Origin: Gemmatimonadota bacterium
Lineage (GTDB): Bacteria > Gemmatimonadota > Gemmatimonadetes > Gemmatimonadales > GWC2-71-9
NCBI GenBank assembly: GCA_016794825.1
Contig: JAEUJH010000672.1
Coordinates: 1 to 45,698 of the forward strand
Reading direction: 5' to 3'
Length of the DNA stretch: 45,698 nucleotides
The number at the start of each line of letters is the position of its first letter. The stretch's first letter is position 1. Made by a program: the position numbers and the translations under genes. Of this stretch, positions 1-45,698 are shown in pieces. Under the pieces are notes generated by a model. That model did not search any database, was not told the DNA's origin, and worked only from the letters and a program-made list of their open reading frames with translations.

Positions 1-450
1 ACGGAGCGAGACGAGATAGGCGGCGGTAATCCTGGTGGGCGGGGCGACGGACAGCAGCACCTGCGGGTTCGGACGACCGGTCAGGACCTGCGCCACCATG
101 AAGGCCGTGTCGCGCGCGTAGCGACTCATCGAGCGGACGGCTGTCCGCCGAACCCGGTGGCGGGCCAGGTCGAGCCGCGCCACATCAGCTGCCGACAGGA
201 CGAAGCCCGCCGGCTCGTGAACCAACTCGAACATGCTGATCCGGGGACCGCGCCGGACCACCGAGTCGAGCATGACGGTCGGGCACCGGCACAACTGCCG
301 CAGATCGACGGCCCGGATTGCGGTCAGGACGCCGGAGGAATCCACCGCCACCGGGAGGGGCGGGCGGGCCTGCGCGCCCAGCACGACCGCCCGCGTCGCG
401 ACGAGCAGTCCCGCCAGCCAGACCCCGCGCCGCCCCGCCCGCTTGATCAT
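1..450 (-). CDS. hypothetical exported protein, N-terminal 150 codons only (gene runs off the left edge)
   Basis: Own translation of the minus strand from ATG 450..448 gives MIKRAGRRGVWLAGLLVATRAVVLGAQARPPLPVAVDSSGVLTAIRAV... and stays open to nt 1. Third positions are almost all G/C and the N-terminus looks like a signal peptide. ATGA overlap with the stop of the upstream gene (447..449). Not in the ORF track because there is no stop in the window. Confidence 0.6.
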   Translation of the reverse strand, partial: MIKRAGRRGVWLAGLLVATRAVVLGAQARPPLPVAVDSSGVLTAIRAVDLRQLCRCPTVMLDSVVRRGPRISMFELVHEPAGFVLSAADVARLDLARHRVRRTAVRSMSRYARDTAFMVAQVLTGRPNPQVLLSVAPPTRITAAYLVSLR

Positions 451-887
451 CGCTCGATCGACACCGGCTTGATCGGAAGGTCCCAGTGGGCCAGCAGCAA
501 CTCGAAGCGGCGCTGTTCCTCCTTGCGATACCGGTCCTGATCGGGGAAACGCTGGGCCAGCCAGGCACCGAGGGTCGGATCCTCGCCGTGCGCTACCACC
601 ACGTCCTTGTACACTAGGGTGACGCGGTAGTCCCAGCGTCCCTCCTCCGTCGCGTGGTCGACCGGTGCCGCCACCTTGATCTCGAGAATGCGGCCCTGCT
701 CGACCTCCCGCTTCAGAATCGGGAGGTGGTTCTTGGTGAACAGCGTCCAGAACTCTTCCGCCGCACCCCACTTGACCTTGTAGTAGAACTCGATGGTGAA
801 GGGACCGCCGTTCTGGGTCTGGGCGGTCAGGGCGGTGGGGGCGCCGACGGCTAGGCCGGCAAGCAGCAGGACGGTGGCTCGAGTCAT
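447..887 (-). CDS. hypothetical secreted protein (small alpha+beta domain, family not recognised)
   Basis: Track ORF 447..914 opens at a TTG. The ATG at 887 gives a clean signal peptide, MTRATVLLLAGLAVGAPTALTA|QTQ. GC3-rich, with a non-repetitive mature sequence (FTIEFYYKVKWGAAEEFW...). Confidence 0.7.
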   Translation of the reverse strand: MTRATVLLLAGLAVGAPTALTAQTQNGGPFTIEFYYKVKWGAAEEFWTLFTKNHLPILKREVEQGRILEIKVAAPVDHATEEGRWDYRVTLVYKDVVVAHGEDPTLGAWLAQRFPDQDRYRKEEQRRFELLLAHWDLPIKPVSIER

Positions 888-4335: not shown

Positions 4336-4799
4336 GGGCGGGTGACCGCCACGGCCTCCACCTCGATCAGCACGTCGTCGCGAAACAACCGACGCACTTC
4401 GACCAGCGTGCTGGCCGGCGGCGCCGCCCGGTTCAGGTACTGGTCGCGAACCTCCCGGACCACGGCAATCTGGCCCGCGTCGAGGACGTAGTAGTTGAGC
4501 TTGATGACGTCCTTGAACGTCGCCCCCGCCGACTCGAGCGCCAGCCGGAGGTTCTCGAACACCTGGACGGTCTGGGCCCGGAGATCATTGGCGCCGACCA
4601 GGCGCCCCTCCCGGTCGAGCGCCACCTGGCCGGCAATGAACACCATCGTATTCCCGGCCGGAACCACGGCCACGTGCGAGTAGCCGCGCGGGGCGTGGAT
4701 CGAGGGCGGATTGTCGAGTCGAGGTGGCGCCTGGCCTTCGAGGCGGCCGGTGTCGAGGGGCAGGATGGCCAGGGCGGCCACGACGAGGAGGAGGCGCAC
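4332..4799 (-). CDS. RidA/YjgF/UK114 family protein with N-terminal signal peptide
   Basis: GTG start at 4799. VRLLLVVAALAILPLDTGRLEG|QAPP, then YSHVAVVPAGNTMVFIAGQVALD...NYYVLD...PASTLVEV, a typical RidA fold signature. Confidence 0.8.
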   Translation of the reverse strand: MRLLLVVAALAILPLDTGRLEGQAPPRLDNPPSIHAPRGYSHVAVVPAGNTMVFIAGQVALDREGRLVGANDLRAQTVQVFENLRLALESAGATFKDVIKLNYYVLDAGQIAVVREVRDQYLNRAAPPASTLVEVRRLFRDDVLIEVEAVAVTRP

Positions 4800-4853: not shown

Positions 4854-5903
4854 TCAAGGCTGAGCGGGGCGCATCTCGATCAGGTGGACTTCCGGCGGTG
4901 CGTTGATCCGGATCGGCAGGGTCGTGCACCCCACGCCGCGCGAGACGATGAGGTGACGGCCGTCGCCGAGGCCGTACTCGCCCGCGGGATGGACGCGGCT
5001 GAGCGGGCCGTGCGGCAGGACCGGCCGCCAGCCGGCCCGGGTCGCGATCTGCCCGCCGTGGGTGTGTCCGGCCAGCGCCAGCGAGTACGGATGGTCGCCC
5101 GCGTCGAGGAGGCCCGACGGCTGGTGGATCAACAGGACTCGGGCCGCGCCGGCCGCTGCAAAGGCCGCGTCGGCGTCCGGGTAGCCGGTCATGTGGTCGT
5201 CGAGACCCACGATCGAGAGCCCGCCAAGCGCCGGGGGCAGGTCGGCCGATTCGTTGAGCAGGACTCGCACGCCGACCGTCTCGAGGTCCCGCGCCACGCG
5301 GCGACCGCCGGCATAGTGGTCGTGATTACCCAGGACCGCATAGCACCCGCCGGGCGCACTGAGGTCGCGGAGGATTGCCGTGAGATCGGGGAGGTGACGA
5401 GCCGTCGGGCTCACGAAATCGCCGCCGTACAGCAGGACATCGGGCTCGACGGCCGCCAACAGACTCGCCGCCTCCACAAGTGACTGGGTCGAGGTCGTCG
5501 GCCCGGCATGGAAGTCCGCGGCGAACGCGATCCGGACGGTACGCGTCAACGTACCTGGAGGAGCCGTTACGGCATGGAGGGACAACGAAACCGGCGACCG
5601 CCAGCCGATCGCGTCCGTTAGACGAACCGGCCAGCGGAACGGCGTGGCCAGATCCTGCAGCGCTTCCCAAAGCGGCCGCCAACCGCCGAAGTGGCGGACC
5701 GGGCGGTCCGGGAACCGCGGCTGGTTGGTCTCGGGATCGGAAACCGCGACTCGACCCGCGCGAGTCCGGCCAGGTCGGGCGACGGAAGTCAGAGGGGCCT
5801 CGGGGCGGATCGGTCCGGCGGCAACGAGTCCATCGATCGAATTATCGGCCGGCGCCCGGCGAACCGTGAGCGGGGCCTCAGTCGGCGCGCCCCTCGGCCT
5901 CAC
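4854..5903 (-). CDS. metallophosphoesterase (YkuE/COG1408-like); start codon uncertain
   Basis: C-terminal 230 aa carry RIAFAADFHAG, GGDFV, GNHDH and GHTHGGQ. Homology-like sequence continues upstream (WRSPVSLSLHAVTAPP...). I find no in-frame ATG/GTG/TTG between 5585 and 5870. The nearest upstream start is GTG 5903, overlapping the HD gene 3' end by 26 nt. TTG 5549 and TTG 5585 would truncate the conserved N-terminal region. Confidence 0.6.
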   Translation of the reverse strand: MRPRGAPTEAPLTVRRAPADNSIDGLVAAGPIRPEAPLTSVARPGRTRAGRVAVSDPETNQPRFPDRPVRHFGGWRPLWEALQDLATPFRWPVRLTDAIGWRSPVSLSLHAVTAPPGTLTRTVRIAFAADFHAGPTTSTQSLVEAASLLAAVEPDVLLYGGDFVSPTARHLPDLTAILRDLSAPGGCYAVLGNHDHYAGGRRVARDLETVGVRVLLNESADLPPALGGLSIVGLDDHMTGYPDADAAFAAAGAARVLLIHQPSGLLDAGDHPYSLALAGHTHGGQIATRAGWRPVLPHGPLSRVHPAGEYGLGDGRHLIVSRGVGCTTLPIRINAPPEVHLIEMRPAQP

Positions 5904-6477
5904 GGGCTCGTCGTTCGGTTTCCTGGTCGAGCGTGGAGCGGAGCGCCTCCAGGATCGGATTGCCGGCCGTGTACTGCCGGCCGTAGCCGAGGTTGAAGCG
6001 ATAGTCGAACCCCGTGGGGTTGTCGCCCTGGGTGTGCTGCAGGATGGTCTCGAGTTTGTCGAGCGCCTTGGCGAGCCGGGCTTCCGGGCTCGTGGCATTC
6101 TCGTACTCGTCCCAGAGAGATAGCACGGTGTTCCGGACGTCGAGCGGCAGGGTGGCCACCAGGGTTTCGAGATCCCGCCGTTCCTGGGCGCCCTTGCCGC
6201 CCGGCTCGGTGGCGAGCCGCCGCGCCTGCTCCGGGGCCGGGATGTCGCCGCCGATGGCCTCGCCCAGGTCGTGCACGAGACAGATCGCCAGGAGTCGTCC
6301 CAGATCGACATCGGGAAAGGCGGGGCGGAGGACCAGCGCCATGAGGCCGACTCGCCACGAGTGCTCGGCAACGCTCTCGACCTGCCCGGCCGAGGTATGG
6401 GCGCTTCGGCTCGTCGTCTTGAGGCGCTCGGCCTGGCGCAGGAAGGCGAGAACGCCGTCCAACTCGGCCGGCGTCAT
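5878..6477 (-). CDS. HD domain protein (YfbR-like 5'-nucleotidase family)
   Basis: 199 aa. ESVAEHSWRVGLMALVL...LAICLVHDLGEAIGGDIP matches the H..HD..D metal motif layout of YfbR-type HD hydrolases. ATGA overlap with the map stop. Confidence 0.8.
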   Translation of the reverse strand: MTPAELDGVLAFLRQAERLKTTSRSAHTSAGQVESVAEHSWRVGLMALVLRPAFPDVDLGRLLAICLVHDLGEAIGGDIPAPEQARRLATEPGGKGAQERRDLETLVATLPLDVRNTVLSLWDEYENATSPEARLAKALDKLETILQHTQGDNPTGFDYRFNLGYGRQYTAGNPILEALRSTLDQETERRAREAEGRAD

Positions 6478-7220
6478 GCCGTGGCCGTGAGGACCACCGG
6501 CTTTCCGCCGCGGATGACGATCGTGTTCTCGTAGTGGGCGGCGAGAGCGCCGTTGTGGGTCCGGAGGGTCCAGCCGTCGCCGGATTCGACCACGTGGGCC
6601 GGTTCGGTCGACAGCATGGGCTCCACCGCGAGCACCAGGCCCTCGTGGAGCCGATCGTTCGCGTCGGGGTCGTCGAAGTTCGGGACCGTCGGATCCTCGT
6701 GAATCGTCCGGCCCACGCCGTGGCCGGTCAGTTCCCGAAGGACCCAGTAGCCCGCTTTCCGGGCCGAGCGTTCGACGGCGCGGCCCAGACGGCGGACCGG
6801 CGCGTTCGGCGCGACCGCCGCCATCGCGGCGTCGAAGGCCTGCCGGGCCGCCCGGGCCAACCGGCGGGCGGCGGGCGAGGCGCCCGGGAGCGGAATGGTC
6901 CGCGCCGCGTCCGCGACGTACCCGTCCAGTTCGACGGTCACGTCGATCTTGAGCAGGTCACCAGCCGCCAGGCGCCGCGGTCCTGGAATTCCGTGGACGA
7001 TTTCGTCGTTGACGCTGAGGAGGGTAAAGCCGGGAAAACCGTACGTGAACTGCGGAGCCGAGCGCCCACCCCGGGCGGTCAGGAACGCCGCGGCCCGATC
7101 GTCGAGTTCGCCCGTCGTCATCCCGGGGGCAACCTGTTCGGCCAGGAACGCGTGGGCCTCGGCCACGAGTCGGCCGACGCGCTCCATGCCCTCGCGATCC
7201 GCCCGGGACGCCACGGTCAT
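6474..7220 (-). CDS. map: type I methionine aminopeptidase
   Basis: 248 aa. Motifs VNDEIVHGIP, DLLKIDV, GHGVGRTIHEDP, LAVEPM and HYENTIV match the MetAP type I metal-ligand pattern. Confidence 0.9.
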   Translation of the reverse strand: MTVASRADREGMERVGRLVAEAHAFLAEQVAPGMTTGELDDRAAAFLTARGGRSAPQFTYGFPGFTLLSVNDEIVHGIPGPRRLAAGDLLKIDVTVELDGYVADAARTIPLPGASPAARRLARAARQAFDAAMAAVAPNAPVRRLGRAVERSARKAGYWVLRELTGHGVGRTIHEDPTVPNFDDPDANDRLHEGLVLAVEPMLSTEPAHVVESGDGWTLRTHNGALAAHYENTIVIRGGKPVVLTATA

Positions 7221-7927
7221 GGGTGCGGCGCCTCAGGGAACGGCTCGGCCCAGCGGAGGCCGTCAGGCAGCGCCCGACCCGCAAACTCGACGTGCAGCAC
7301 CCGGCGGCGCGACGGTTCCGCCGCCGGCGCGGAGGAATGGAGCAACAGGGGGCGGAGGAGCAGCACCCCGCCGGCGGGTACCAGGCAGTCGACCGGCAGC
7401 GCCCGGCGCGAGGCGGACTCGATCTCGCCGTCGCCGAGCCGGCCGAAGCGATGGGTGCCGGGGATGACGCGAACCGGACCGTTGCCGGGGCCACAGGGAT
7501 CGAGATGCAGTCGGGCGGTCAGCATGTCCGCCAGCACCGGTGCCGGGGCGCGGACGTGCCAGCCGCCGTCCTTGCGCGACCACGGTCCCCAGCCGGCCTT
7601 TTCCTCGTAGTCGGTCACCCCGATGGTGACGTCCTGATGCCAGGTCACCTTCCAGTTGGCGACGGGCGTCTTGTCGAACAGCAGCACCCGGACCGCCACC
7701 GGGGCCGTGTCGAAATAGGGGCGCACCAGATCGCGCAGGGGGCCGGCGATGACCGGGCCGAGGGCCGGCACGCGGGCCAGCGCGTTCCGTACGCCGCCGC
7801 GGCCCGCGTGCTCCGCGAGGATGGGGGCGACGGCCTGTCGGAGGTCCTCGAGCGCCGCCTCCTCGAGGCCGGACTCGGCGATCGCGAAACCGTCGGCGAG
7901 CAGGGTGGGGGCCAGCGACGCGTTCAT
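7217..7927 (-). CDS. phytanoyl-CoA dioxygenase (PhyH) family Fe(II)/2-oxoglutarate oxygenase
   Basis: 236 aa. WHQDV (HxD facial-triad start), then VIPGTHRFG and LLHSS. Start and stop both overlap neighbouring genes by 4 nt. Confidence 0.75.
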   Translation of the reverse strand: MNASLAPTLLADGFAIAESGLEEAALEDLRQAVAPILAEHAGRGGVRNALARVPALGPVIAGPLRDLVRPYFDTAPVAVRVLLFDKTPVANWKVTWHQDVTIGVTDYEEKAGWGPWSRKDGGWHVRAPAPVLADMLTARLHLDPCGPGNGPVRVIPGTHRFGRLGDGEIESASRRALPVDCLVPAGGVLLLRPLLLHSSAPAAEPSRRRVLHVEFAGRALPDGLRWAEPFPEAPHP

Positions 7928-8469
7928 CGGGGGCTCGGGGTGGTGGCGGCGCGAGTCAGGTTGCGGAGCCGGAGGTCCGCCGAGAATCCGGTTCCGCCGA
8001 CCGGGCCGTCGGTCCCCTGGTAGCTGTACGACGAATCGGAATCGAACCGCATGGTGCGAATGTCGTAACGAAGGCGGCCGGTCGACAGTCGACCGCCCCG
8101 GGTCGGCGCGACCGTCACCGCGCCGGAGACCTCCAGGGTTCCGGCGGCGATCGAGTAGATCGCCCCGGCGCCGGTCAGCACGGCCGCCTGCTCGCCCCGT
8201 TCGTCGAACAGAGTCGCGGTCAGGCGACGGAACTCCACCTCCCGCGCCTCCTGCCGGACGAACGCCGAGTCGGCCACCACGAACCCTTTGCGCAGCCCCA
8301 GGCTGTCGGTCAGCGTGGTGCGGACCCCGACGATGATCTGTTCCGCGATCGGGGCGGCGGTCTCCTGTGCCGACGGGTCGGCGGACCCGCGGCAGGCCCC
8401 GAGCGCGGCCATCAGGACCACGCAGACTCTCGGTATCCGGATCAGCCGGACCATCGCGGCCTGGAACAT
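7924..8469 (-). CDS. LptC-like periplasmic/lipid-anchored protein
   Basis: ATG 8469 inside the long artefactual ORF 7924..10140. N-terminal anchor or lipobox VVLMAALGAC, then a beta-rich region resembling LptC/OstA-type folds (ADSAFVRQEAREVEF..ATLFDERGEQAAVLTGAGAIYS..GTLEVSGAVTV). The family call is by eye only. Confidence 0.55.
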   Translation of the reverse strand: MFQAAMVRLIRIPRVCVVLMAALGACRGSADPSAQETAAPIAEQIIVGVRTTLTDSLGLRKGFVVADSAFVRQEAREVEFRRLTATLFDERGEQAAVLTGAGAIYSIAAGTLEVSGAVTVAPTRGGRLSTGRLRYDIRTMRFDSDSSYSYQGTDGPVGGTGFSADLRLRNLTRAATTPSPR

Positions 8470-9287
8470 CAGGGGCGCCCGGCTCCCGGCGGTCGATCGA
8501 GCTTGAGTTCGAACAGTTCCGGCCACCGTTTGCCGGTCACCAGGAGGTGGCCGGTCGCGGAGTCGTAGGCGATCCCGTTGAGGACGTTTTCCGACGTGGC
8601 CGCGGCATTGTAGGCGGGCAGCAGCTCCGCCAGGTCGAGCACCTCCCGAACCACGCCGGTCTCGGCGTCGATCCGGAGAATCCAGTCGCTCTGGTAGACG
8701 TTGGCGAACACCTCGCCGCCGACGTACTCCAGCTCGTTCAGCTTGCCCACCGGGGTGCCGGTGGTAAAGCGAACCGGGAGCCGCCGCCGGACCGCGAACG
8801 TCCGGGGGTCGACGAACCGGAGGGTGTCGGATCCGTCGCTCATGATGAGCGATTGGCCGTCGGTGGTCAGACCCCAGCCTTCGCCCGGATAGGCGATCGA
8901 GTCGACCAGGGCAAACGTGGCCCGGTCGTACACGTAGGCGAGCTGCGATTGCCAGGTGAGCTGATAGAGGCGGTTTTCGAACCGCGCCAGACCTTCGCCG
9001 AACCGCTCGGCCGGGAGCGGTACCACCTTGTCCGCGACACCCGTCTTCAAGGCAACCGACCGCAGTTCCGACGAGCCATAGCGCCCCGTCGACTCGAGCA
9101 GGACGCCGCCCGACTCGAGCAGCAGTCCCTGGGTGTACGCGGCCGTGTCGTGGGGAAACCGAGCGACGACCACATAACTCCGCGGCGGGGGCGGGGGCGC
9201 GGCCTTGGCCGCGCAGGCGACGAGGAAGACCGTGCCGACCGCGGCCAACCAGGGCGCTTGGGACTGGATCAGGGGGAACCACGACAT
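8469..9287 (-). CDS. glutaminyl-peptide cyclotransferase (plant/bacterial beta-propeller type), lipoprotein
   Basis: YTQGLLLE..ESTGRYGSS..FGEGLA..LYQLTW..GEGWGLTTDGQSLIMSDGS..LNELEYVGGEVFANVY is the hallmark pattern of type I glutamine cyclotransferases. ATG 9287 gives MSWFPLIQSQAPWLAAVGTVFLVAC, which ends in a lipobox. The stop overlaps the next start by 1 nt (TGATG). Confidence 0.85.
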   Translation of the reverse strand: MSWFPLIQSQAPWLAAVGTVFLVACAAKAAPPPPPRSYVVVARFPHDTAAYTQGLLLESGGVLLESTGRYGSSELRSVALKTGVADKVVPLPAERFGEGLARFENRLYQLTWQSQLAYVYDRATFALVDSIAYPGEGWGLTTDGQSLIMSDGSDTLRFVDPRTFAVRRRLPVRFTTGTPVGKLNELEYVGGEVFANVYQSDWILRIDAETGVVREVLDLAELLPAYNAAATSENVLNGIAYDSATGHLLVTGKRWPELFELKLDRPPGAGRP

Positions 9288-9332
9288 GGGCGAAAAGTAC
9301 GCTTCGACCCGCACCGCGGAAAGCGGCCGGTG

Positions 9333-9986
9333 TCAGCCCGCCGGCGGGAGTCGGCGCTGCCGGATCCAGGCCCGAACCAGGCTGAGCCAATCCGACCGAG
9401 GCTGGTAGAACGCTCCATGGCCCAGCCCGGTGGCCAGGCTCCGCTCCTCGGTGATCGAACCGGCTCCAGCCCGGCGGAGCAGCCCTCGACACGACTGGCC
9501 CAGCGAGTCCGACTGCTCGAAAATCGAAAGGATGCGCCCCGAGACGGCCGGAAACTCGCCGCTGCCGTCTCCGCAACTGCCGAGAAACACGAACCCGACC
9601 TCCGGGCGGGCCAGCCGGGCGGCGGCCAGGATCGCGATGCCCCCGCCTTTCGAAAACCCCACCACGGTGACGTTCGCGGGATCGACGCCGGCCTTCGTCA
9701 GACTGTCGACCTGCGCGACGACCCGGCCCGCCCACTGCGACGGATCGGCGCCGGAGGGACGGAGGTCGGCGATGACGGACACCCCGCCGGCTCGGAGCGA
9801 GTCGACGATGGCATGGAACGCGTACGGGCCGAACACCGGACTGATGGCGCGGGGGCCCTGCTCCTCGATGATCCGACCGTGGAGGTAGATCGCCACCGGA
9901 GGGCGAGCCTGGGCGACGGCGGCGGCTCCGTTCAGGAGCCCGATCGCAATCGCCAGATGGATGGTTCGTTCGACCGAGCGGAGCAT
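9333..9986 (-). CDS. secreted alpha/beta hydrolase (dienelactone-hydrolase-like)
   Basis: ATG 9986 inside track ORF 9333..10307. Signal peptide MLRSVERTIHLAIAIGLLNGAAAVA|QARPP. Nucleophile elbow GFSKGG, and a C-terminal GLGHGAF. Confidence 0.7.
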   Translation of the reverse strand: MLRSVERTIHLAIAIGLLNGAAAVAQARPPVAIYLHGRIIEEQGPRAISPVFGPYAFHAIVDSLRAGGVSVIADLRPSGADPSQWAGRVVAQVDSLTKAGVDPANVTVVGFSKGGGIAILAAARLARPEVGFVFLGSCGDGSGEFPAVSGRILSIFEQSDSLGQSCRGLLRRAGAGSITEERSLATGLGHGAFYQPRSDWLSLVRAWIRQRRLPPAG

Positions 9987-10063: not shown

Positions 10064-12040
10064 CTATCGCGCCAGGTCGCGAACCGCGCCGGCCAGCATC
10101 CGGACCTTGGCGGCGTCGCGGGAGCCCCGGGCGTCGGCATCGAGCCCGGAGGCGAGTTGCGACAGGGCGGTCTGCCGCGCCGGGCCGGAGGCCTGCTCGG
10201 CCCCGCTCAGCGCGTCCCGCACGGCCGAAATGCGCGCCGCCGAAAGACCCTGGGTCCGCGCCAGCTGATCCACGAACGCCCGGGCGAGCGCGAAGCTCGG
10301 CGGCCACACCATCTTCGGCTGGCCCTGCGCGTTCAGGTAGTCGAACCGGACCGTCTTGGCCGCGTCGATCTCGTTCTGGCTGATGAACCCGCTCGGGGTC
10401 AACTCGAAGATGTCGAGGCCGCGGGAAATCTCGGAGCTGACGATGACGCCGTTGTACCAGTACACCGACCAGGACCCGCCGTTGCCCATCCGGGCAGAAT
10501 CCACCGGGCCCCGATCGTGATAGGCGATCTCGATCGGCCGGGACGGATCGGTCCAGTCGAAGATCGAAATCCCGCCCTGGTACCAGGACTGCACCATGAC
10601 GTCCCGGCCCGGAATCGGAATCAGCGAGCCGTTATGGGCCACGCAGTTTTCCTGGGAGGTCTGCGGCGCCGGGAGCTTGTAGTAGCTCTTGAAGTGCATC
10701 TTCCGGTCGCTCAGCGTGAAGATGGCGTTGGCGCCCCATTCCTTCGGGTCGCTCTTGCGGCACTTCGGCCCGCCGCCGCCGCCCCATTCGTCGGTAAAGA
10801 GGATCTTGGTGCCGTCGTTGTTGAACGTGGCCGAGTGCCAGTACGAGAAGTTGGAGTCGGCCACGGCGCCGATCCGCTTCGGGTTGGCCGGGTCGGTGAT
10901 GTCGAGGAGGAGTCCGTACCCCTCGCAGGCGCCGCCGGCGAGCCCGATGGCCGGATAGACCGTGATGTCGTGGCACTGGGTCGGGCCGGGCTTGGGGCCC
11001 CGGTGGTCCGCGTCGGCGCCGGTCATCCGGGCGATCATGGCGGGCAACGCCGCCCGGAGCGCCGAGCTGTCGGCGCCGGTGGGCGCTCCGGTCCCGCCCC
11101 GCGCCTTCACGATGCTGTCGAGCATCGGCCGGGTCATTCCCGACGGCAGCACGAACGACTCGCCATCGAACTCCGCGATGAACGCGCCGCGGGCCCGGGC
11201 GGCCTCGGTGGCGGCCTTGTCGTCCGGCGCGGCGCCGTGCTTGGGCGGCGCGACCAGATCATTGAAGATCCGGGGCGAGCTGACGATCGCGGCCCGTTCG
11301 GGGTTGGCCACCGGGACCTTGATCACTTCGATCCGGAACAGGGCCGAGTTCGGGTCCTTGTCCGGCGTCGCGCTCGAACAGCCCGGGAGTTCGGATTCGG
11401 GCCGGACGCCCGCCGAGCCCGAGATGTAGACGTAGGCGTTGTCGGGGTCCTTCGGATCGATCAGGACGGTGTGGGTGTGCGAGCCCCGGCAGGTCTGGAC
11501 GTTGCCGACGTTCTTCGGCTTGGTGATGTCGGTGATGTCGAAGATCCGGAGGCCGCGGAGCCGGTCCTTGCTCGCCACTTCCCGGACGCCCTGCCCGCCG
11601 CAATCGAGGCGGCCGGTCAGGCCCTCGCCCGAGATGAACAGCAGATTCCGGTAGACCGACACGTCGCTCTGCGAGGCCGGGCAGTAATAGGCGGTCGTCA
11701 GGTTCGGCCGGCTCGGGTTGCTGATGTCCCAGATCTGCCAGCCGTTGTAGTTGCCCTGGATGACGTAGTTGCCCTTGAAGGCCAGATCCGAGTTCGTCAC
11801 GTTGAGGAATCGCTCGGACGGGGGCGTCTTCGACAGCACCCGGAGGTTCCACACCGCTTCGGCCGCGTCCATCCGCCCGGCGCGCAGCCCCACCCGCGGA
11901 TCAGGACTTGGCGCCGTTTCCGTGTACGCGGCGACCGGAGTCGGCACGCCGCCCGACGTCGAGGTCGACGAGGCGCATCCCGCCAGCGTGGCGACACCGA
12001 GCGCATAGCCGAGGCCGCGGTTTCGAAGGACTGAGACCAT
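10064..12040 (-). CDS. LVIVD-repeat beta-propeller lipoprotein
   Basis: ATG 12040 is preceded by GAGGAA. Lipobox MVSVLRNRGLGYALGVATLAGC. Repeated hydrophobic-I/V-D motifs (LRIFDITD, LLLDITD, ISIFDWTD, LDIFELT) are typical of LVIVD repeats. The upstream two thirds of track ORF 10064..13030 are junk. Confidence 0.8.
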   Translation of the reverse strand: MVSVLRNRGLGYALGVATLAGCASSTSTSGGVPTPVAAYTETAPSPDPRVGLRAGRMDAAEAVWNLRVLSKTPPSERFLNVTNSDLAFKGNYVIQGNYNGWQIWDISNPSRPNLTTAYYCPASQSDVSVYRNLLFISGEGLTGRLDCGGQGVREVASKDRLRGLRIFDITDITKPKNVGNVQTCRGSHTHTVLIDPKDPDNAYVYISGSAGVRPESELPGCSSATPDKDPNSALFRIEVIKVPVANPERAAIVSSPRIFNDLVAPPKHGAAPDDKAATEAARARGAFIAEFDGESFVLPSGMTRPMLDSIVKARGGTGAPTGADSSALRAALPAMIARMTGADADHRGPKPGPTQCHDITVYPAIGLAGGACEGYGLLLDITDPANPKRIGAVADSNFSYWHSATFNNDGTKILFTDEWGGGGGPKCRKSDPKEWGANAIFTLSDRKMHFKSYYKLPAPQTSQENCVAHNGSLIPIPGRDVMVQSWYQGGISIFDWTDPSRPIEIAYHDRGPVDSARMGNGGSWSVYWYNGVIVSSEISRGLDIFELTPSGFISQNEIDAAKTVRFDYLNAQGQPKMVWPPSFALARAFVDQLARTQGLSAARISAVRDALSGAEQASGPARQTALSQLASGLDADARGSRDAAKVRMLAGAVRDLAR

Positions 12041-12078: not shown

Positions 12079-12774
12079 TCACGGGGCCCGCCGAAGTCCG
12101 GCCAGTGCGGCCAGCATCGACTTCATCCGGGCGATTTCGGTGGACTGATCGACGTTCACGTCCGACGCGAACTTGAACACGATCTCGTCCTGCCCGGCAC
12201 CGTGAGAATCGAACAGGGTTTTGACCATCTCCACCGCGCCGCGGTGGTGCTGAATCATGTAGAGCAGAAAGAGCCGGTCGAACGCGGGGCCCCGCGCCGC
12301 GCGCAGTTCCTCGAGCTGTTCCGGGGTCAGCATGCCGGGCATCATCATGTCGTGCTCGACCCCGTTCATCACCATCTTCATGCCGGTCGGCCGGGCCTCG
12401 GGCACCGGCTGCAACCGCTCGCGGAGCCACTGCTGCATCAGCGCGATCTCGTCCCGCTGCGCGTTGATGATCCGCGCGGCCAGGGTGCGAACCGAGGGAC
12501 TCGCGTCCCGCTCCGCCGCCCACCCCGCGATCAGGATGGCCTGGGCGTGGTGACTGATCATCCCCGACATGAAGTGGATGTCGGCTTCGGTATAGGGATT
12601 CCGGAGGCTGTCGGCCCGGGCCCGGGCCACGGCCTCCGGATCCGGCGCGCGACTGGCGGCCGCCTGCGGAGCGGGCGGACTGCCGGCCGGGCCGGGTTTG
12701 GCGCATCCGGCGGCGAGCAGCACGCCCAGCAGGGTGCCTGAAAGGGACGTGAATCGGAATCGGGTCGACGGCAC
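12079..12774 (-). CDS. DUF305 family (ferritin-like four-helix) lipoprotein with Met-rich insert
   Basis: Two copies of the DUF305 His motif (IHFMSGMISHHAQAI and FLLYMIQHHRGAVEM). Met-rich stretch GMKMVMNGVEHDMMMPGM. GTG 12774 gives the lipobox signal PSTRFRFTSLSGTLLGVLLAAGC; GTG 12831 is the alternative longer start. Confidence 0.8.
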   Translation of the reverse strand: MPSTRFRFTSLSGTLLGVLLAAGCAKPGPAGSPPAPQAAASRAPDPEAVARARADSLRNPYTEADIHFMSGMISHHAQAILIAGWAAERDASPSVRTLAARIINAQRDEIALMQQWLRERLQPVPEARPTGMKMVMNGVEHDMMMPGMLTPEQLEELRAARGPAFDRLFLLYMIQHHRGAVEMVKTLFDSHGAGQDEIVFKFASDVNVDQSTEIARMKSMLAALAGLRRAP

Positions 12775-12965: not shown

Positions 12966-13783
12966 ATGTCGCGTTCGCTTCGTCGCCTGTCGATCATCGG
13001 CTTCGGGCTGCTGATCACCGTCGCGACCACCGGGCTGGGGCAGGGTGCCGTGCGCCGAGGGGCCGTCGTCGGCGGGGTCGCGGGCGCGATCGGCGCCGGG
13101 GCGCTTGGGGCCGTCCTGAGTCAGGCCATGTGCGACGCGGCGGATTGCGGCGGCGCCTGGGTCGAGGGCGCGGTGCCGGGCGCCGTGCTGGGGGAATCGG
13201 CGGCGCGATCCTGGGAGCCGGGGTCGGGGCGCTGGTGGGTGGAGGCTCGAGCGCCGCGGGGCCGCAAGCCCGGTCGGCGGTCGTGGTGTTGGTCGACGCC
13301 TCCGTCGCGCGCCTCGAATCGAACCTGGTCGAGCAGAACGCCACCGGGATCCGGGGTCTGGCCGGCCTGCGCCTCAAAGGGGGCCTTCTGGTCGGGCCGG
13401 CGGTGGAGCGGCTGGCCGGCGGCGGCTGGCGGGTCACCTCCCTCGGTGCCACGGCCCGCCTCGATCCCGGTCGGGGCGCGATCCGTCCCTTTGCCGAGGT
13501 CGACGTGGCCCGGTTCGACTGGCGGCATCCGGCCATCATCGCCACCTGCGGCCCGACCCTTCCGAGTTGCGTCTATGCCCCCGGGACCAAGACGGACGAC
13601 TACCTCGGCGTTGCGGGCGCGGTCGGCGCGTCGGTCGGTTCCGCCGGGGGTGGCTGGCGCGGGTTTGCGCTGGTTCGGTTCCACCACGCCGGCGGTCGTC
13701 CAGCGGGCGAACCCGCCTCGACCGAGTCCCGCCAGATCCGGCAGGTGGCCATCGGGGGCGAACTTGCCTTCCGGATCCGGTAG
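12966..13783 (+). pseudogene. glycine-zipper / beta-rich exported protein interrupted by a 1-nt frameshift in a G5 run
   Basis: Frame A (ATG 12966) encodes MSRSLRRLSIIGFGLLITVATTGLG|QGAV...GAVPGAVLG with high GC3, then becomes R/S/P junk. Frame B takes over at 13193 (GIGGAILGAGVGALVGGGSS...ELAFRIR*, high GC3, stop at 13783) but has no start of its own. The switch is at GGGGG 13190..13194; adding one G restores ...AVLGGIGGAILGAG... Confidence 0.55.
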
Positions 13784-13915
13784 GCCGACCGTTTCGACGC
13801 CGGGACCGGCGCTGACGGCGGTTTGCAGTTCGGGCCTCGTCCGAGTATCTTCCCGGCCTCTTAAGTCGTTGCAGGAATTGGGGCTTAGCCACGCGTCACC
13901 CGGCAATGAGGGCTC

Positions 13916-14554: not shown

Positions 14555-14620
14555 GGCCGGCGGCCCGTGCCGACGATGGCAACACGATGGCGCGGGAAAG
14601 TCTCGCGTCGTTCGACAACT

Positions 14621-14626
14621 AAGGAG
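14621..14626 (+). promoter_or_regulatory. Shine-Dalgarno sequence AAGGAG for the MIPS gene
   Basis: AAGGAG lies 5 nt upstream of GTG 14632. It is the strongest SD I see in the window. Confidence 0.5.
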
Positions 14627-14631
14627 ATCTC

Positions 14632-34977: not shown

Positions 34978-36684
34978 ATGCTGAAGCCGTCGAGGGCCGG
35001 GGTCCGGAGTTTTCTTGCGGGAGGGTTGTTGTGGGCTGCCGTCACCGCGGCACCGCTCCGGGCCCAGGTCGTCACCATCACCGCCACGGACGGCATTTCC
35101 CGCCGGCCATTGGTCGGTGCGCTGCTGTCGCTTCGGGACACCCGGGGCGTTCCGGTGGCCCGGGTGCTGGCCGACGACCGAGGCCGCGGCGTCCTCAAGG
35201 CGCCGGCTCCCGGGCGGTTCGTGGCCCGAGCCGACGCGATCGGGTATCGCGGCACCGCCTCCGAGCCGTTCGACCTCGCGGCCGGGGCCACGCCCGCCGT
35301 GGCCCTGACGCTCGAACCGGCTCCGCTCGGTCTCAACGAACTGGTCGTCGGATCGGAACGAAAGGCGGTCTGCCGCCTCGATGCTCGAACCGGCGGGGCG
35401 ACCTCGCGCCTCTGGGAGGAGGCCCGCAAGGCGCTGACGAGTACGTCGATCGTCGCCTCGTCGCCCTCGGTCATCGAGATCGCGAGCTACGAGCGCCGGC
35501 TCGATCTCTCCGGAACGGTGGTGACCGAAGACCGGGCAGTCCGCCAGACCGGCTCCGTCAAGCCTTTCGTCTCCGCCGATCCCGAGGATCTCCATCGGAA
35601 CGGCTGGGTCCAAACCCGACCCGACGGCGTCTGGTATTTCGGCCCCGACGCCGATCTGCTGCTTTCCGATCAGTTCCTGAACGACCACTGCTTCCGGATC
35701 GAGATGCCGCGGGACGGGCTGGTCGGTCTCTCGTTCGAACCCCATCGCGATCGCGACAAATCCGACGTCAACGGGACCCTCTGGCTCGATGCCCAGTCCC
35801 TCGAACTGCGGCGCCTCGAGTTCGGCTTCATCGGCGTCACCCTCCCGCCCGAAGCCCGCGGCATCGGCGGTCTGGTCGAATTCACCCGCCACCCCACCGG
35901 CGCGTGGTACGTCCAGCGGTGGAGAATCCGGATGCCGACATTCACCCGCATCCTCAAGGCCGTCGGCGCCCGGGACACGCTGACCGGATATCGGGAGGCC
36001 GGCGGCGAAGCGTCGCTGATCGCGGCCGGGCGCCCCGTGCGCCCGGGGGCGACGACGGTGCAGGGCACCGTGTTCGACTCGGTGGCCGGCAAACCGCTGG
36101 CCGGCGTGGCGGTGGCGCTCGGCGGCGGCCGCGCCGATACCACCGACGCCGCCGGCCGATACCTGATCGAGTCGGCCGGGGTCGGGACCTACCTGGTCAC
36201 CTTCGATCACCCACGGTTCGTCGCCCTCGGCCTGGGTCAGCTCCGGGCGGCTGCCAGTCTCCGCCGCGGCCTGGCCGACACCGTCGACCTGGCCACTCCC
36301 TCCGCGGCCACGCTGTTCCGCCGCCTCTGCCCCGCCGACTCGACGCCGGACCTCGGAGCCGTCTTCGGCATCGTGCTCGACAGCGCCACCGGGGCACCGA
36401 TCGAGCGATCCGTCGTCACCCTCCGTGTTTCCGGCGGGTTCACCATGCGCTCCACCCCCACCGACGCCCGGGCCCCGGGCGGGAGCGGGCTTCGGGTCTC
36501 CGTGGTCCAGGATGGCGTGATTTGGGAGGTAACCCCTCCACCCGCTGGCCCGTTTCACGTCTGCGGCGTCCCCAGGCAGCGGCCCCTCAAGGTCCGGGTC
36601 GAGGTACCCGGCCGACCGGCCGTGACGGTCGATCTTGCGCCCAATCCCGACCCGCTTCGCGACCTGATCATCCGGGTGCCCTAG
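34978..36684 (+). CDS. secreted carboxypeptidase-regulatory-like (CarboxypepD_reg) domain protein
   Basis: Signal peptide ...WAAVTAAPLRA|QVVTI. Two CarboxypepD_reg-like beta-sandwich segments (TATDGISRRPLVGALLSL.. and VQGTVFDSVAGKPLAGVAVALGG..TDAAGRYLI). Confidence 0.75.
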   Translation: MLKPSRAGVRSFLAGGLLWAAVTAAPLRAQVVTITATDGISRRPLVGALLSLRDTRGVPVARVLADDRGRGVLKAPAPGRFVARADAIGYRGTASEPFDLAAGATPAVALTLEPAPLGLNELVVGSERKAVCRLDARTGGATSRLWEEARKALTSTSIVASSPSVIEIASYERRLDLSGTVVTEDRAVRQTGSVKPFVSADPEDLHRNGWVQTRPDGVWYFGPDADLLLSDQFLNDHCFRIEMPRDGLVGLSFEPHRDRDKSDVNGTLWLDAQSLELRRLEFGFIGVTLPPEARGIGGLVEFTRHPTGAWYVQRWRIRMPTFTRILKAVGARDTLTGYREAGGEASLIAAGRPVRPGATTVQGTVFDSVAGKPLAGVAVALGGGRADTTDAAGRYLIESAGVGTYLVTFDHPRFVALGLGQLRAAASLRRGLADTVDLATPSAATLFRRLCPADSTPDLGAVFGIVLDSATGAPIERSVVTLRVSGGFTMRSTPTDARAPGGSGLRVSVVQDGVIWEVTPPPAGPFHVCGVPRQRPLKVRVEVPGRPAVTVDLAPNPDPLRDLIIRVP

Positions 36685-38658: not shown

Positions 38659-39231
38659 ATGCTCGCTACTCGTCGTTGGCGCCACGCGCTCGTCGCCGTC
38701 ACCCTGATCGCGACCGCCGGCGTCGGGTGCGGCGGTGACCTGGTGGCGCCCCAGCCCGAACCGCCGACCGGCCCGGAGCTGAGCCTCCTCGGCGATCTGG
38801 CCGGGACCACCAGAACCGTCCTCCGCAAGACCACCGGGCTCGTCTTCGGGCTGCTGCGCTGTGTCCCGCTCCAGGGCGACGTCACCAGCCGGAACATCGG
38901 ACCCGCGGGCGGGGTCATCCGCGCCGGGGAGTACACCCTCGCCGTTCCCGCGGGGGCGCTCGATCGAACCGTCCGGATCACGATGGAGCAGGTCCGCGAT
39001 ACCGTGAACTCGGTTCGGTTCGCGCCGGAGGGGCTCCACTTTGCCCGCTCCGCGCGCCTCACGATGAGCTACGAGAATTGTCGGCCGGCGCCCGGTGGTC
39101 GTGATCACCGCATCGTCTACGTCGACGAAGCGCTCCGGGTGCTCGAGACGCCCGCGTCCCGCGACGATCGCCGGGCCGAGGAAGTCTCCGGGCAGGTCGA
39201 TCACTTCTCCAGATACGCGGTGGCCTGGTAG
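38659..39231 (+). CDS. hypothetical lipoprotein
   Basis: ATG 38659 gives a canonical lipobox signal, MLATRRWRHALVAVTLIATAGVGC. GC3-rich. The upstream part of track ORF 38404..39231 lacks coding character. Confidence 0.65.
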   Translation: MLATRRWRHALVAVTLIATAGVGCGGDLVAPQPEPPTGPELSLLGDLAGTTRTVLRKTTGLVFGLLRCVPLQGDVTSRNIGPAGGVIRAGEYTLAVPAGALDRTVRITMEQVRDTVNSVRFAPEGLHFARSARLTMSYENCRPAPGGRDHRIVYVDEALRVLETPASRDDRRAEEVSGQVDHFSRYAVAW

Positions 39232-42152: not shown

Positions 42153-42638
42153 ATGAGCCGAGGCCCGAAAACGACGGATGAAGGAAACGACCGGATCCCG
42201 GTGGCACGGAATCCGCGGGCCACTCACGACTACCACATCCTCGAGACCCATGAGGCCGGCATCGTCCTCACCGGAACCGAGGTCAAGAGCCTCCGCCAGG
42301 GGAAGGCGTCGATCAAGGAGGCGTACGGGCTGGTTCGCAACGGCGAGGTGTGGCTGGAGGGGATGCACATCACGCCGTATGAGCAGGGCAACCGGTACAA
42401 CCACGAGCCGGTCCGGGGGCGGAAACTGCTCCTCCATCGGCGCGAAATCGAACGTCTGATCGGGGCGACGGAACAGAAGGGTTGCACCCTGGTTCCGCTC
42501 GAGTTGTACTTCAAGAAGGGCCGCGCCAAAGTGGCCCTGGCGTTAGGGAAGGGGAAGAAGGTGCACGATCGGCGGGAAGATCTGAAACGGCGCATCGCGG
42601 ACCGCGAAATGGCCCGGGCGATGAAGAGCGGACGATGA
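42153..42638 (+). CDS. smpB: SsrA-binding protein SmpB
   Basis: NPRATHDYHILETHEAGIVLTGTEVKSLR..GKASIKEAY..GEVWLEGMHITPYE..GNRYNHEPVRGRKLLLHRREI..L is the highly conserved SmpB core. ATG 42153 lies within track ORF 42138..42638. Confidence 0.9.
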   Translation: MSRGPKTTDEGNDRIPVARNPRATHDYHILETHEAGIVLTGTEVKSLRQGKASIKEAYGLVRNGEVWLEGMHITPYEQGNRYNHEPVRGRKLLLHRREIERLIGATEQKGCTLVPLELYFKKGRAKVALALGKGKKVHDRREDLKRRIADREMARAMKSGR

Positions 42639-43924
42639 ACGCGCTGACCGTTCTCGCCGTGGCGTTGGCGGCCACGCCGCATCCGGTCCCGCGCGCGGCC
42701 GCGCCGATGGTGGTGCTCGTCGCCACCGCCCGCGGCGACGTCCGGATTCTGGTTCGGTCCGACCCCGTGGCCGGACCGGTGGTGGCCGCGCCGACCCTGC
42801 TCGGCGCCGTCGGCGGCCGCGGCGCGGTCGAAGGCGCCTGGGCCGAAATCGAAATTGCCCGGCAGTCGTTCCGGCTCCTGATCGGCGGACCCTACTACAG
42901 CCTCGGGTCGGGCCTCAAGCCGCTGGTCGGTACCGCCTCGGTTCGCCGCGATACGCTCTTCCTGCCGATCCAGTTCATCACTCACGTCCTCCCGGCCGAA
43001 CTCAAGGAGCGGTTTCGCTACGACGCCCAGGCTGGCCGGCTCGACGACCTGACGATCATCCGGGTGGCCGCGGCGACTCCGAACCGCGCCGCCCCGAATC
43101 GGACGTCGCCCCCGGCGCGCCAGCCCGAGCCGGCATCGACCGCCCCCTCGGATCCCGACCTGCTGCCCAACGGTCTCCGGAAGGGGCACGTCGTCACGAT
43201 CGATCCCGGGCACGGCGGCGTCGACCCCGGCAATCCGGGGATCTTCTTTCCCCGCGGCCTCAAGGAGAAGGACGTCACCCTGCAGGTGGGCCTGCTGGTC
43301 CGCCAGGAGTTGCTCAAGCGGGGCGTGGGCGTGACGATGACGCGGACCACCGACACCCTCATCAACCTCTACGATCGGGGCGCCTACTGCACCGATCGGT
43401 GCGGGCTCTTCGTCAGCCTCCACGTCAATTCGCTCAAGAAGCGGCCCGGCTACAGCAAGGTCCGGGGCTTCGAGACCTACTACCTCGACGTCGCCCGAAC
43501 CGAGGACGCGGCCCGCGTGGCCCAGATGGAAAACGAGGCCGTCCGGTTCGAGGCCGAGGACGGCCAGAGCGCCGGCCTCGGCGGGCTCGACTTCATCCTC
43601 AAGGACCTCCAGACCAACGAGTACCTCCGGGAGTCGGTTCGGCTGGCCGAGCTGATGCAGTCGCATGTGGGTGAGGTGCACCCCGGGCCCGACAAGGGCG
43701 TCAAGCCGGCCCGACTCATCGTCCTGGGTACCGCCCGGCGGCCCGCCATTCTCTTCGAGATGGGCTTCAGCACCAACCCCGAGGACGCCAAGCTGATGAC
43801 CGAGTCGCGGTCGCAGCGGAATCTCGCCGCCTCGATTGCCGATGCGGTCGTGTCCTACCTCCTCGAGTACCAGCAGCGGGTCGGCTCGGTCGTTCAGAGC
43901 TCGTCCGGACGGGGCCGGGAGTGA
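42635..43924 (+). CDS. N-acetylmuramoyl-L-alanine amidase (Amidase_3 family) with N-terminal targeting domain
   Basis: The ATG overlaps the smpB stop (ATGA). Catalytic domain VVTIDPGHGGVDPG..., LFVSLHVNS, ILFEMGFSTNPED. Confidence 0.85.
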   Translation: MNALTVLAVALAATPHPVPRAAAPMVVLVATARGDVRILVRSDPVAGPVVAAPTLLGAVGGRGAVEGAWAEIEIARQSFRLLIGGPYYSLGSGLKPLVGTASVRRDTLFLPIQFITHVLPAELKERFRYDAQAGRLDDLTIIRVAAATPNRAAPNRTSPPARQPEPASTAPSDPDLLPNGLRKGHVVTIDPGHGGVDPGNPGIFFPRGLKEKDVTLQVGLLVRQELLKRGVGVTMTRTTDTLINLYDRGAYCTDRCGLFVSLHVNSLKKRPGYSKVRGFETYYLDVARTEDAARVAQMENEAVRFEAEDGQSAGLGGLDFILKDLQTNEYLRESVRLAELMQSHVGEVHPGPDKGVKPARLIVLGTARRPAILFEMGFSTNPEDAKLMTESRSQRNLAASIADAVVSYLLEYQQRVGSVVQSSSGRGRE

Positions 43925-44796: not shown

Positions 44797-45469
44797 ACTC
44801 GTCCTTGCCCTCGACGTCGCCGACCGGGAGGCCGCCCTTCGGCTGCTCGACCGGATCCCCGGGGTCGGCTGGGTCAAGCTCGGTTCGGTGCTCTTTACCC
44901 GAACCGGTCCAGCCCTGATCGCCGAACTCAAGGCTCGAGGCCACCAGATCTTCCTCGACCTCAAGTGGCACGACATCCCCAACACGGTGCAGGGGGCGGT
45001 GGCCCAGGCGCGCGAGGTTGGCGTCGACATGGTGACGGTCCACGCCCTCGGCGGGGCCGCGATGATCGCGGCCGCCAAGGCGGCCGCCGGTGACCGGGTT
45101 CAGGTCGTGGCGGTGACGGTCCTGACCTCCCACTCGACCGCCGAGCTGGCCTCGCTGCTCGGACGGCCCACCGCCACCCCGGCCGACGAAGTCCTCCGGT
45201 TGGCCCGACTGGCCCGCCAGGCCGGCGCCGACGGAGTCGTTTCCTCGCCCCTCGAAACCGCCTTGCTGCGGGCCGACCTCGGGCCGGGCGCCCTGCTGGT
45301 GACCCCGGGGATCCGATCGCCCACCGATCCCAAGGGCGACCAGACCCGGACCGCCACCGCGGCCGAGGCGGCCCGAGCCGGGAGCACCCACCTGGTCGTT
45401 GGCCGGCCGGTCCTCCAGGCCGCCGACCCGGCGGCCGCGTGGGCCGGCCTGGTGGAGTCGATCCGGTGA
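44789..45469 (+). CDS. pyrF: orotidine-5'-phosphate decarboxylase
   Basis: GTG 44789 has an 8-nt overlap with pyrD. LVLALDV, IFLDLKWHDIPNTV (DxKxxD motif), VTVHALGG, LVVGRPV. The upstream part of track ORF 44246..45469 is out-of-frame pyrD sequence. Confidence 0.85.
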   Translation: MAELVLALDVADREAALRLLDRIPGVGWVKLGSVLFTRTGPALIAELKARGHQIFLDLKWHDIPNTVQGAVAQAREVGVDMVTVHALGGAAMIAAAKAAAGDRVQVVAVTVLTSHSTAELASLLGRPTATPADEVLRLARLARQAGADGVVSSPLETALLRADLGPGALLVTPGIRSPTDPKGDQTRTATAAEAARAGSTHLVVGRPVLQAADPAAAWAGLVESIR

Positions 45470-45698
45470 TCCGCGCCGCCCTCCTGCTCCTGTTCCTTCA
45501 GGCTCCGCCGCAGCCGACCGCGGACCTGGGCCGACTGGCCGAGTCCGCACGGCGAGCCTTTCAGCAACGGGAGTTCAACGCCTTGTTCGACGCCCGCGAG
45601 CCGGTCCGGCTCGAACTGCCGAACCAGCCCGCGTCGGTGTCGGTGGCGGGCCGAGTGGCCGCGGCTGCCTTGAGCGGGTTGGTCCGGCGGACCGAGGA
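45466..45698 (+). CDS. hypothetical protein, N-terminal fragment (runs off the right edge)
   Basis: The GTG overlaps the pyrF stop (GTGA). Own translation VIRAALLLLFLQAPPQPTADLGRLAESARRAFQQREFNALFDAREPVRLELPNQ... stays open to the window end and is GC3-rich. Confidence 0.45.
   Translation, partial: MIRAALLLLFLQAPPQPTADLGRLAESARRAFQQREFNALFDAREPVRLELPNQPASVSVAGRVAAAALSGLVRRTE

Follow-up and report, generated by a model that had tools for sequence, protein, structure and literature searches.

Does the Q-rule, under which most substrates of signal peptidase I (SPase I) begin their mature part with glutamine, also operate in bacteria other than Bacteroidetes? The question is raised by a 45,698-nucleotide (nt) stretch of DNA from a Gemmatimonadota bacterium (contig JAEUJH010000672.1 of assembly GCA_016794825.1, forward strand), which was analysed as a whole and is hereafter called the window. 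A gene on its reverse strand (8469..9287) is assigned to the type I, or beta-propeller, glutaminyl-peptide cyclotransferases (QCs) and appears to encode a lipoprotein, while several exported proteins encoded in the window carry Gln directly after their predicted signal peptides. An earlier reading of the sequence, referred to here as the original prediction, had proposed on these grounds a possible Q-rule outside the Bacteroidetes. Our analysis supports this proposal: the window bacterium, and apparently its phylum, probably follows a Q-rule of the Bacteroidetes type in which the QC would cap the exposed Gln, a reading to which we assign a probability of roughly 0.75.

The glutaminyl cyclase and its host

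The open reading frame (ORF) at 8469..9287 comprises 272 amino acids (aa) and begins with MSWFPLIQSQAPWLAAVGTVFLVA/CAAKAAPPPPP, the slash marking, here and below, the predicted end of the signal peptide. A match to a glutamine cyclotransferase profile had been named as a check of the original prediction, and one was indeed obtained with Pfam PF05096 (Glu_cyclase_2, the family of five-bladed beta-propeller QCs; E = 3.7e-88). The match scored 295.6 bits, where 22.3 is the cut-off, and covered positions 16-249 of the 249 in the profile. Residues 28-269 align end to end with four solved QC structures at E values from 1.5e-39 to 3.9e-55 (3mbr, 3.9e-55; 3nol, 1e-53; 2faw, 3.8e-52; and 3nok). Among 78 homologues from several phyla, 57 columns are at least 90% conserved, and the window enzyme retains 56 of them, the sole change being Ala208 in place of a Pro that is 96% conserved. 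The blocks PHD..T.GL, ESTG (including its Glu), F.EG, QLTW, GEGWGLTTDG, NELE, AN, NGIA and TGK.W are all intact. No NCBIfam model matched the QC or the uncharacterised exported proteins of the window. Judged by these profile and structure matches, the ORF encodes a type I QC.

The enzyme also carries a lipobox of its own, as had been predicted. The motif L-V-A-C occupies residues 22-25 at the end of the hydrophobic core (Cys codon 9213-9215) and conforms to the pattern [LVI][ASTVI][GAS]C. From the ATG start the n-region contains neither Lys nor Arg; an alternative GTG start at 9314 adds an Arg. The 19 other Gemmatimonadota QCs all carry, directly past the hydrophobic core, a Cys with G, A or S in front of it, and a lipobox-type Cys is likewise present in 7/7 type I QCs of Bacteroidota, 11/12 of Acidobacteriota and 22/27 of Verrucomicrobiota.

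That the host is a member of the Gemmatimonadota, and not of the Bacteroidetes, was judged from three window genes unrelated to one another, whose nearest relatives all lie in metagenome-assembled genomes of Gemmatimonadota. The best identities are 58-63% for the QC, up to 80% for E1-beta and 77% for a protein with CarboxypepD_reg domains (34978..36684). The window has a GC content of ~70%. Across 14.8 kb the window shares 99.6% identity with the Logan contig L327, which comes from the window organism itself or a very close strain.

As a separate observation, the QC gene ends in a stop codon that overlaps by 1 nt, at position 8469, the start codon of the downstream gene for an LptC-domain lipoprotein (7924..8469), which suggests translational coupling. 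The corresponding gene calls on L327 are 5513-6331 and 6331-6876.

Glutamine after the signal peptides of the window

Signal peptides were sought with a self-written pipeline rather than with SignalP, on genes called by a self-training caller based on codon usage. Candidates needed a charged n-region and a hydrophobic core 8-18 residues long; those with a Rossmann motif or a transmembrane stretch further on were rejected, and a separate lipobox filter was applied. A first heuristic was dropped in favour of this stricter filter, having scored ~40% of genes as positive and found Gln in no more than 20% of cases for the Bacteroidota, which served as positive control. Cleavage sites were then chosen blindly with respect to Gln, solely by the residues at -3 and -1 and by how far the site lies from the core, the +1 residue being ignored except that Pro was excluded. 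This chooser was correct in roughly two thirds of those Escherichia coli K-12 cases that could be judged against known sites.

The original prediction counted Gln after eight of eight signal peptides lacking a lipobox. All eight peptides were found, each with CAG as the proposed +1 codon, but the count itself has to be revised to six clear cases, one ambiguous and one weak, with one or two exceptions. All seven usable signal peptides (7/7) have Gln directly past an allowed (-3, -1) site. As a baseline, this arrangement is seen in 35% of E. coli signal peptides and in 7-9% of control windows from mature regions; by our own arithmetic, seven in seven at the E. coli baseline has a chance of 0.35^7, or ~6e-4. 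The Gln pattern of the window thus exceeds chance.

Three of the six clear cases lie on the reverse strand. In a small exported protein matching no Pfam or NCBIfam family (447..887; MTRATVLLLAGLAVGAPTALTA/QTQNG, Gln codon 819-821), the site LTA/Q is the top-scoring one in the Gln-blind choice. The second is an exported protein of the RidA/L-PSP family (PF01042; 4332..4799; VRLLLVVAALAILPLDTGRLEG/QAPPRL, Gln codon 4731-4733), whose site LEG/QAP would look odd by itself and was accepted because homologues fix the boundary. Indeed, an allowed site followed by Gln occurs in 76 of the 79 homologues with a signal peptide, and their sites NSDA/QTAPRL and LDA/QPAARL align with G/QAPPRL of the window protein. 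RidA proteins are normally cytoplasmic; those homologues of this enamine deaminase that bear signal peptides form a large family, in which the signal peptide nearly always ends in A/Q. The third is an exported alpha/beta hydrolase resembling dienelactone hydrolases (9333..9986; MLRSVERTIHLAIAIGLLNGAAAVA/QARPP, Gln codon 9909-9911; site AVA/QAR). Among its homologues the top Gln-blind site is followed by Gln in 40/77, and the residue past Gln may be R, S, T, A, P or K; because this residue varies, Gln is not the -2 residue of an AQA/ site in that family.

The other three clear cases are encoded on the forward strand. A Gly-zipper-rich exported protein (12966..13783; MSRSLRRLSIIGFGLLITVATTGLG/QGAVR, Gln codon 13041-13043; site GLG/QGA) has a 1-nt deletion at ~13192 relative to L327, where the gene is intact and encodes 272 aa; the resulting frameshift affects the protein past ~75 residues, leaves the signal peptide untouched and may reflect either a mistake in the assembly or a genuine pseudogene. 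The end coordinate 13919 given earlier for this gene corresponds to an out-of-frame stop. An exported esterase-family protein (PF00756; 32075..33724; MRRLLAGLIAATVLAGRAEG/QRVEV, Gln codon 32135-32137; site AEG/QRV) has orthologues in two other loci with Gln at the equivalent boundary (PGLAA/QSVQV in L082, 67% identity; SQILA/QGPRF in L008, 42%). Finally, the exported CarboxypepD_reg protein (PF13620; 34978..36684; MLKPSRAGVRSFLAGGLLWAAVTAAPLRA/QVVTI, Gln codon 35065-35067; site LRA/QVV) belongs to a set of paralogues and orthologues, found in 78 Gemmatimonadota loci, whose N-terminus reads A/Q[A/T/S/I/E/Q]V[R/H]G, with a constant Gln and a variable next residue.

The ambiguous case is an exported protein on the reverse strand whose gene runs off the window (1..450; 167 aa in full; MIKRAGRRGVWLAGLLVATRAVVLGA/QARPP, Gln codon 370-372). 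QAR is invariant in 25/25 homologues and F or L precedes Gln in two of them, so that LGA/QAR and AQA/R are both plausible readings for this protein. The weak case (45466..45698, forward strand; VIRAALLLLFL/QAPPQ) was left out of the count: with Leu at both -1 and -3 and a hydrophobic core of only 8 residues, it does not look like a credible SPase I site. The predicted mature start QARPP is shared by the unrelated proteins of 1-450 and 9333-9986 (codons 370-372 and 9909-9911).

Enrichment across Gemmatimonadota

The tabulation of +1 residues against background that the original prediction called for was carried out on 177 Gemmatimonadota loci (19 QC, 80 E1-beta and 78 CarboxypepD_reg-paralogue neighbourhoods; 2,355 called genes). 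They were drawn from many species of Gemmatimonadales and Longimicrobiales and are samples of loci, not whole proteomes. Comparison sets consisted of QC neighbourhoods of Verrucomicrobiota, Acidobacteriota, Chloroflexota, Planctomycetota, Bacteroidota and others, and 300 kb of E. coli K-12 served as a control. BLASTP served to group the proteins into families, and weighting by family kept orthologues from being counted several times.

The 177 loci yielded 183 strict signal-peptide candidates in 95 families. Past the top Gln-blind site, Gln is the commonest residue, with a family-weighted frequency of at least 0.35 (Leu and Ala reach 0.11 each), against a background of 3.1% (0.031) in the mature parts of the same proteins. 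An allowed site followed by Gln is present in 69% of the candidates and in 59/95 families, compared with 4/26 families of the non-Q controls (Fisher p = 3.6e-5). As the sole metric, any allowed site followed by Gln was dropped, since 6/17 cases in E. coli already satisfy it through the AQA/ motif. The more conservative metric added for this reason, which further requires that the residue past Gln not be a small one, is satisfied by 34/95 families and by 2/34 controls (p = 6e-4), the negative-control sets being small (34 families). In the CarboxypepD_reg-paralogue loci, which are rich in secreted proteins, Gln stands past an allowed site in 101/126 candidates, and most of the apparent misses are AQA/VRG calls in the family that reads Q[A/T/S/I/E/Q]V[R/H]G. 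In the E1-beta neighbourhoods, which contain few secreted proteins and many false positives (short-chain dehydrogenases/reductases, inositol-phosphate synthase, CDP-alcohol transferases), the signal is diluted.

An expectation-maximization (EM) model gave a consistent picture. With the classical -3/-1 weights fixed and only positions -2, +1, +2 and the spacing learned, the frequency of Gln at +1 was 0.71 in Gemmatimonadota and 0.67 in the Bacteroidota positive control, whereas E. coli and the other controls returned the textbook pattern (+1 Ala 0.33, Glu 0.14, Gln 0.12). A version with all columns free had been discarded after it collapsed onto patterns of the hydrophobic core. The Q-rule refers to a majority of SPase I substrates with Gln at +1, with species Q-values above ~48%, a range into which the EM estimate falls, albeit with a home-made predictor. 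Taken together, the frequencies at Gln-blind sites, the EM estimate and the conservation of Gln among homologues support the proposal of a Q-rule outside the Bacteroidetes.

Other phyla

In Acidobacteriota (Blastocatellia/Pyrinomonadaceae and one contig of Bryobacterales), a group outside the Fibrobacteres-Chlorobi-Bacteroidetes (FCB) superphylum, the rule of Gln after the signal peptide is as strong as in Bacteroidota. Both QC loci (L023-L071) and gyrA neighbourhoods (L245-L323) were analysed. The latter, 79 independent loci, gave 95 strict candidates in 50 families; the top Gln-blind site is followed by Gln in 48% of cases, the second most frequent residue reaching 6%, and a Gln site occurs in 30/50 families. 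The EM estimate for Gln at +1 in Acidobacteriota is 0.70. No earlier description of a Q-rule in this phylum was found in the literature searched. The Bryobacterales QC (L047:9986-10747) differs from the lipoprotein form: it has an SPase I-type signal peptide ending in VALLA/QTKASP and no lipobox, so the enzyme would be among its own substrates.

Verrucomicrobiota (L009-L078), Chloroflexota (L011-L056) and Planctomycetota (L034, L050) also encode homologues of the window QC, with identities of 46-55%. Little or no Gln enrichment accompanies them (for Verrucomicrobiota the EM model puts +1 Gln at 0.08), which argues that possession of a QC is insufficient for the Q-rule; the correlation of +1 Gln with the presence of QC, proposed as a check of the original prediction, does not hold for these lineages.

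We somewhat favour a wider view, in which exposure of Gln and its capping by a lipoprotein type I QC form a trait of several soil and sediment phyla, comprising Gemmatimonadota, Blastocatellia/Pyrinomonadaceae, probably Bryobacterales and perhaps others. Since QC alone does not predict the rule, such a trait would call for a second factor, such as the load of periplasmic aminopeptidases or the specificity of the signal peptidase, which would decide which QC-bearing lineages adopt it.

Proposed mechanism and alternative explanations

From the sequences we infer cleavage positions, topology, chemistry and benefit as follows. SPase I would cut Sec-exported proteins other than lipoproteins just before Gln. 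The QC, to judge by a lipobox conserved throughout the phylum, would be exported and held by its lipidated Cys in the membrane, facing the periplasm. Given ~45% identity to the solved type I enzymes and its conserved residues, it may be expected to convert the exposed N-terminal Gln into pyroglutamate. By analogy with Porphyromonas gingivalis (PMC10653852), the blocked N-terminus may shield periplasmic, outer-membrane and secreted proteins from aminopeptidases. Lipoproteins would be exempt, as they start with an acylated Cys.

Several points weigh against this reading. The mature N-termini of Gemmatimonadota proteins are predictions from sequence, the predictor is home-made, and the candidate sets retain false positives among membrane and cytoplasmic proteins; the EM estimate is self-reinforcing and may be too high. 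Gln is absent from some proteins that are likely to be exported, namely an amidase and a NamZ protein described below and several families in the Gemmatimonadota loci. The QC lipoproteins of Opitutaceae (Verrucomicrobiota) are 50-55% identical to the window enzyme, yet a Gln site is found there in only 8/27 families and the EM value for +1 Gln is 0.08. In addition, none of the neighbours of the window QC (LptC-like protein, hydrolase, PhyH, LVIVD, DUF305) is conserved at the 19 other Gemmatimonadota QC loci; the adjacency of the enzyme to genes for Gln-start proteins is therefore incidental and carries no weight. On the other side stand direct observations: the family to which the enzyme belongs, its lipobox, the Gln statistics and the conservation among homologues.

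The alternative that survives best, although we hold it to be unlikely, is that Gln at +1 has been selected for a reason other than capping by QC. The SPase I of this lineage might prefer it, for instance, or it might act in sorting or cyclise spontaneously, and the QC would be reserved for a few dedicated substrates. The uncoupling of QC and Q-rule in the QC-bearing loci of Opitutaceae, Chloroflexota and Planctomycetota is what would be expected in this case. However, the three groups with strong Gln enrichment among the loci analysed, Bacteroidota, Gemmatimonadota and Blastocatellia, all have an exported QC, nearly always a lipoprotein, and N-terminal Gln is the exact substrate of the QC family. 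Moreover, experiments in P. gingivalis have tied Gln(+1) and QC to the stability of proteins (PMC10653852).

Alternatively, Gln might be the -2 residue of an ordinary A-Q-A/ motif, as is frequent in Proteobacteria, with the mature protein starting one or two residues later. The original prediction had itself raised this caveat: two of the window peptides can be read as AQA/R, and in E. coli five of seven Gln sites are AQA. Homologues of the 1-450 protein, with their invariant QAR and the F or L before Gln in two of them, point the same way, and for this protein the caveat stands. For the remainder it is largely answered. Past Gln, Gemmatimonadota show a wide range of residues (A, G, T, D, Q, E, S, R, K, N, V, P and others), as opposed to Ala in 5/7 cases in E. 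coli. The 9333-9986, 4332-4799 and 34978-36684 families retain Gln but differ at the position past it, where the residue is often one that is disallowed at -1. Likewise, the EM model places Gln at -2 with a frequency of 0.28 in the controls but only 0.02 in Gemmatimonadota. As a general explanation, a displaced AQA/ site is thus very improbable.

That the pattern is a chance run, or that sites such as LEG/Q, AEG/Q and LFL/Q were placed to suit the hypothesis while a signal peptide lacking Gln was omitted, was tested and rejected, since the enrichment was reproduced with Gln-blind sites, family weighting and independent loci and homologues back the oddly placed sites of 32075.. and 4332.., which leaves this explanation next to no probability.

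Comparison with known systems

Capping of exposed Gln by the QC thus remains the preferred reading, and it closely parallels what is known from Bacteroidetes. There, Gln(+1) is found on most SPase I substrates, with a mean Q-value of 71% (Bochtler et al. 2018, PMC5837995) against ~0.7 estimated here; lipoproteins are exempt in both cases, and in both the QC is itself a lipoprotein, as it is in P. gingivalis, where plant-type QCs are among the heterologous replacements for PgQC (mBio 2023, PMC10653852). In the window the exported, membrane-associated QC is represented by the PF05096 protein with its LVAC lipobox. Type I QCs also occur in the Bacteroidetes Nonlabens and Alistipes, and the window enzyme is 44-50% identical to those of Alistipes. 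What sets the present case apart is the host, which belongs to a phylum that neither of these two papers analysed.

Gemmatimonadota are usually placed in the FCB superphylum, so an extension of the rule to them is plausible rather than shocking. The FCB grouping used in the survey of Q-values lists only Fibrobacteres, Chlorobi and Bacteroidetes (PMC5837995). Neither of the two Q-rule papers (PMC5837995, PMC10653852) mentions Gemmatimonadota, neither Gemmatimonas nor Acidobacteria appears in the supplementary tables of PMC5837995, and no description of a Q-rule in Gemmatimonadota was found in the literature searched. That survey reported low Q-values in most Chlorobi, Spirochaetes, Chlamydiae and cyanobacteria, together with outliers 'with no obvious pattern', namely Ignavibacterium album (77%), Chloroherpeton thalassium (55%) and a few cyanobacteria (40-67%) (PMC5837995). 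Accordingly, Gln enrichment outside the Bacteroidetes is not entirely new. The outliers resemble Gemmatimonadota in the size of their Gln(+1) enrichment; unlike them, they are isolated, whereas the enrichment described here spans the 177 loci.

With the solved type I QCs (3mbr from Xanthomonas campestris, 3nol from Zymomonas mobilis, 3nok from Myxococcus xanthus and 2faw from papaya) the window enzyme shares a full-length alignment and the intact conserved blocks. It differs from them by the lipobox, by Ala208 and by the proposed set of substrates, which would be the whole exoproteome. Which substrates the solved bacterial QCs act on in nature has not been established (PMC7948796).

In the literature the Q-rule is treated as specific to Bacteroidetes, and it underlies the development of QC inhibitors against periodontal pathogens. 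Should the rule hold throughout the Gemmatimonadota and also for one class of Acidobacteriota, the trait would have a greater age than previously assumed or would have been acquired more frequently. A general function would then be at hand for bacterial type I QCs, the targets of which have been called 'not fully known'. In these soil phyla, which are poorly cultured, cleavage-site prediction, searches of N-terminal proteomics data and heterologous expression would have to allow for pyroglutamate at the N-terminus. It would also become possible to compare QC-bearing lineages with and without the rule and to seek the factor that separates them.

Lipoproteins, exceptions and other genes

The five lipobox proteins of the window stand outside the Gln pattern, as had been noted earlier: all (5/5) have Cys and not Gln at +1, in line with the exemption of signal peptidase II (SPII) substrates from the Q-rule. 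Besides the QC these are, on the reverse strand, the LptC-domain protein already mentioned (PF06835; 7924..8469; ..VVLMAALGA/CRGS), a predicted SPII substrate, an LVIVD-repeat lipoprotein (10064..12040; ..GVATLAG/CASS) and a DUF305 lipoprotein (12079..12773; ..GVLLAAG/CAKP), and, on the forward strand, a lipoprotein matching no family (38659..39231; ..LIATAGVG/CGGD).

A probable exception to the Gln pattern, omitted from the original prediction, is an N-acetylmuramoyl-L-alanine amidase of the Amidase_3 family (PF01520, AmiC-like; 42635..43924, forward strand; MNALTVLAVALA/ATPHP). Its N-terminus resembles a signal peptide, with an n-region free of Lys and Arg and no Gln nearby. Just beyond the window, L327 encodes a GH3 protein with SAAA/QSAP, a NamZ protein (L327 14887-16080) with IATA/APPR and a beta-lactamase-family protein that is a lipoprotein. 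NamZ resembles the amidase in having a signal-peptide-like N-terminus without Lys or Arg in the n-region and without Gln after it. The two proteins may use another export route, or their N-termini may be signal anchors.

Both N-terminal fates, a lipobox Cys or an SPase I site followed by Gln, can occur within a single family. This is the case in Gemmatimonadales E1-beta loci (L126, L129 and L142 versus L150 and L151), and a similar split is seen in the 9333-9986 family (P0049, P0059 and P0094 versus the rest). Lineages thus seem to switch between the two.

A further observation concerns the forward strand at 13910-15963, where a gene for a CDP-alcohol phosphatidyltransferase is followed by one for myo-inositol-1-phosphate synthase. 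The pair suggests synthesis of inositol phospholipids and is found again in the E1-beta loci of other Gemmatimonadales.

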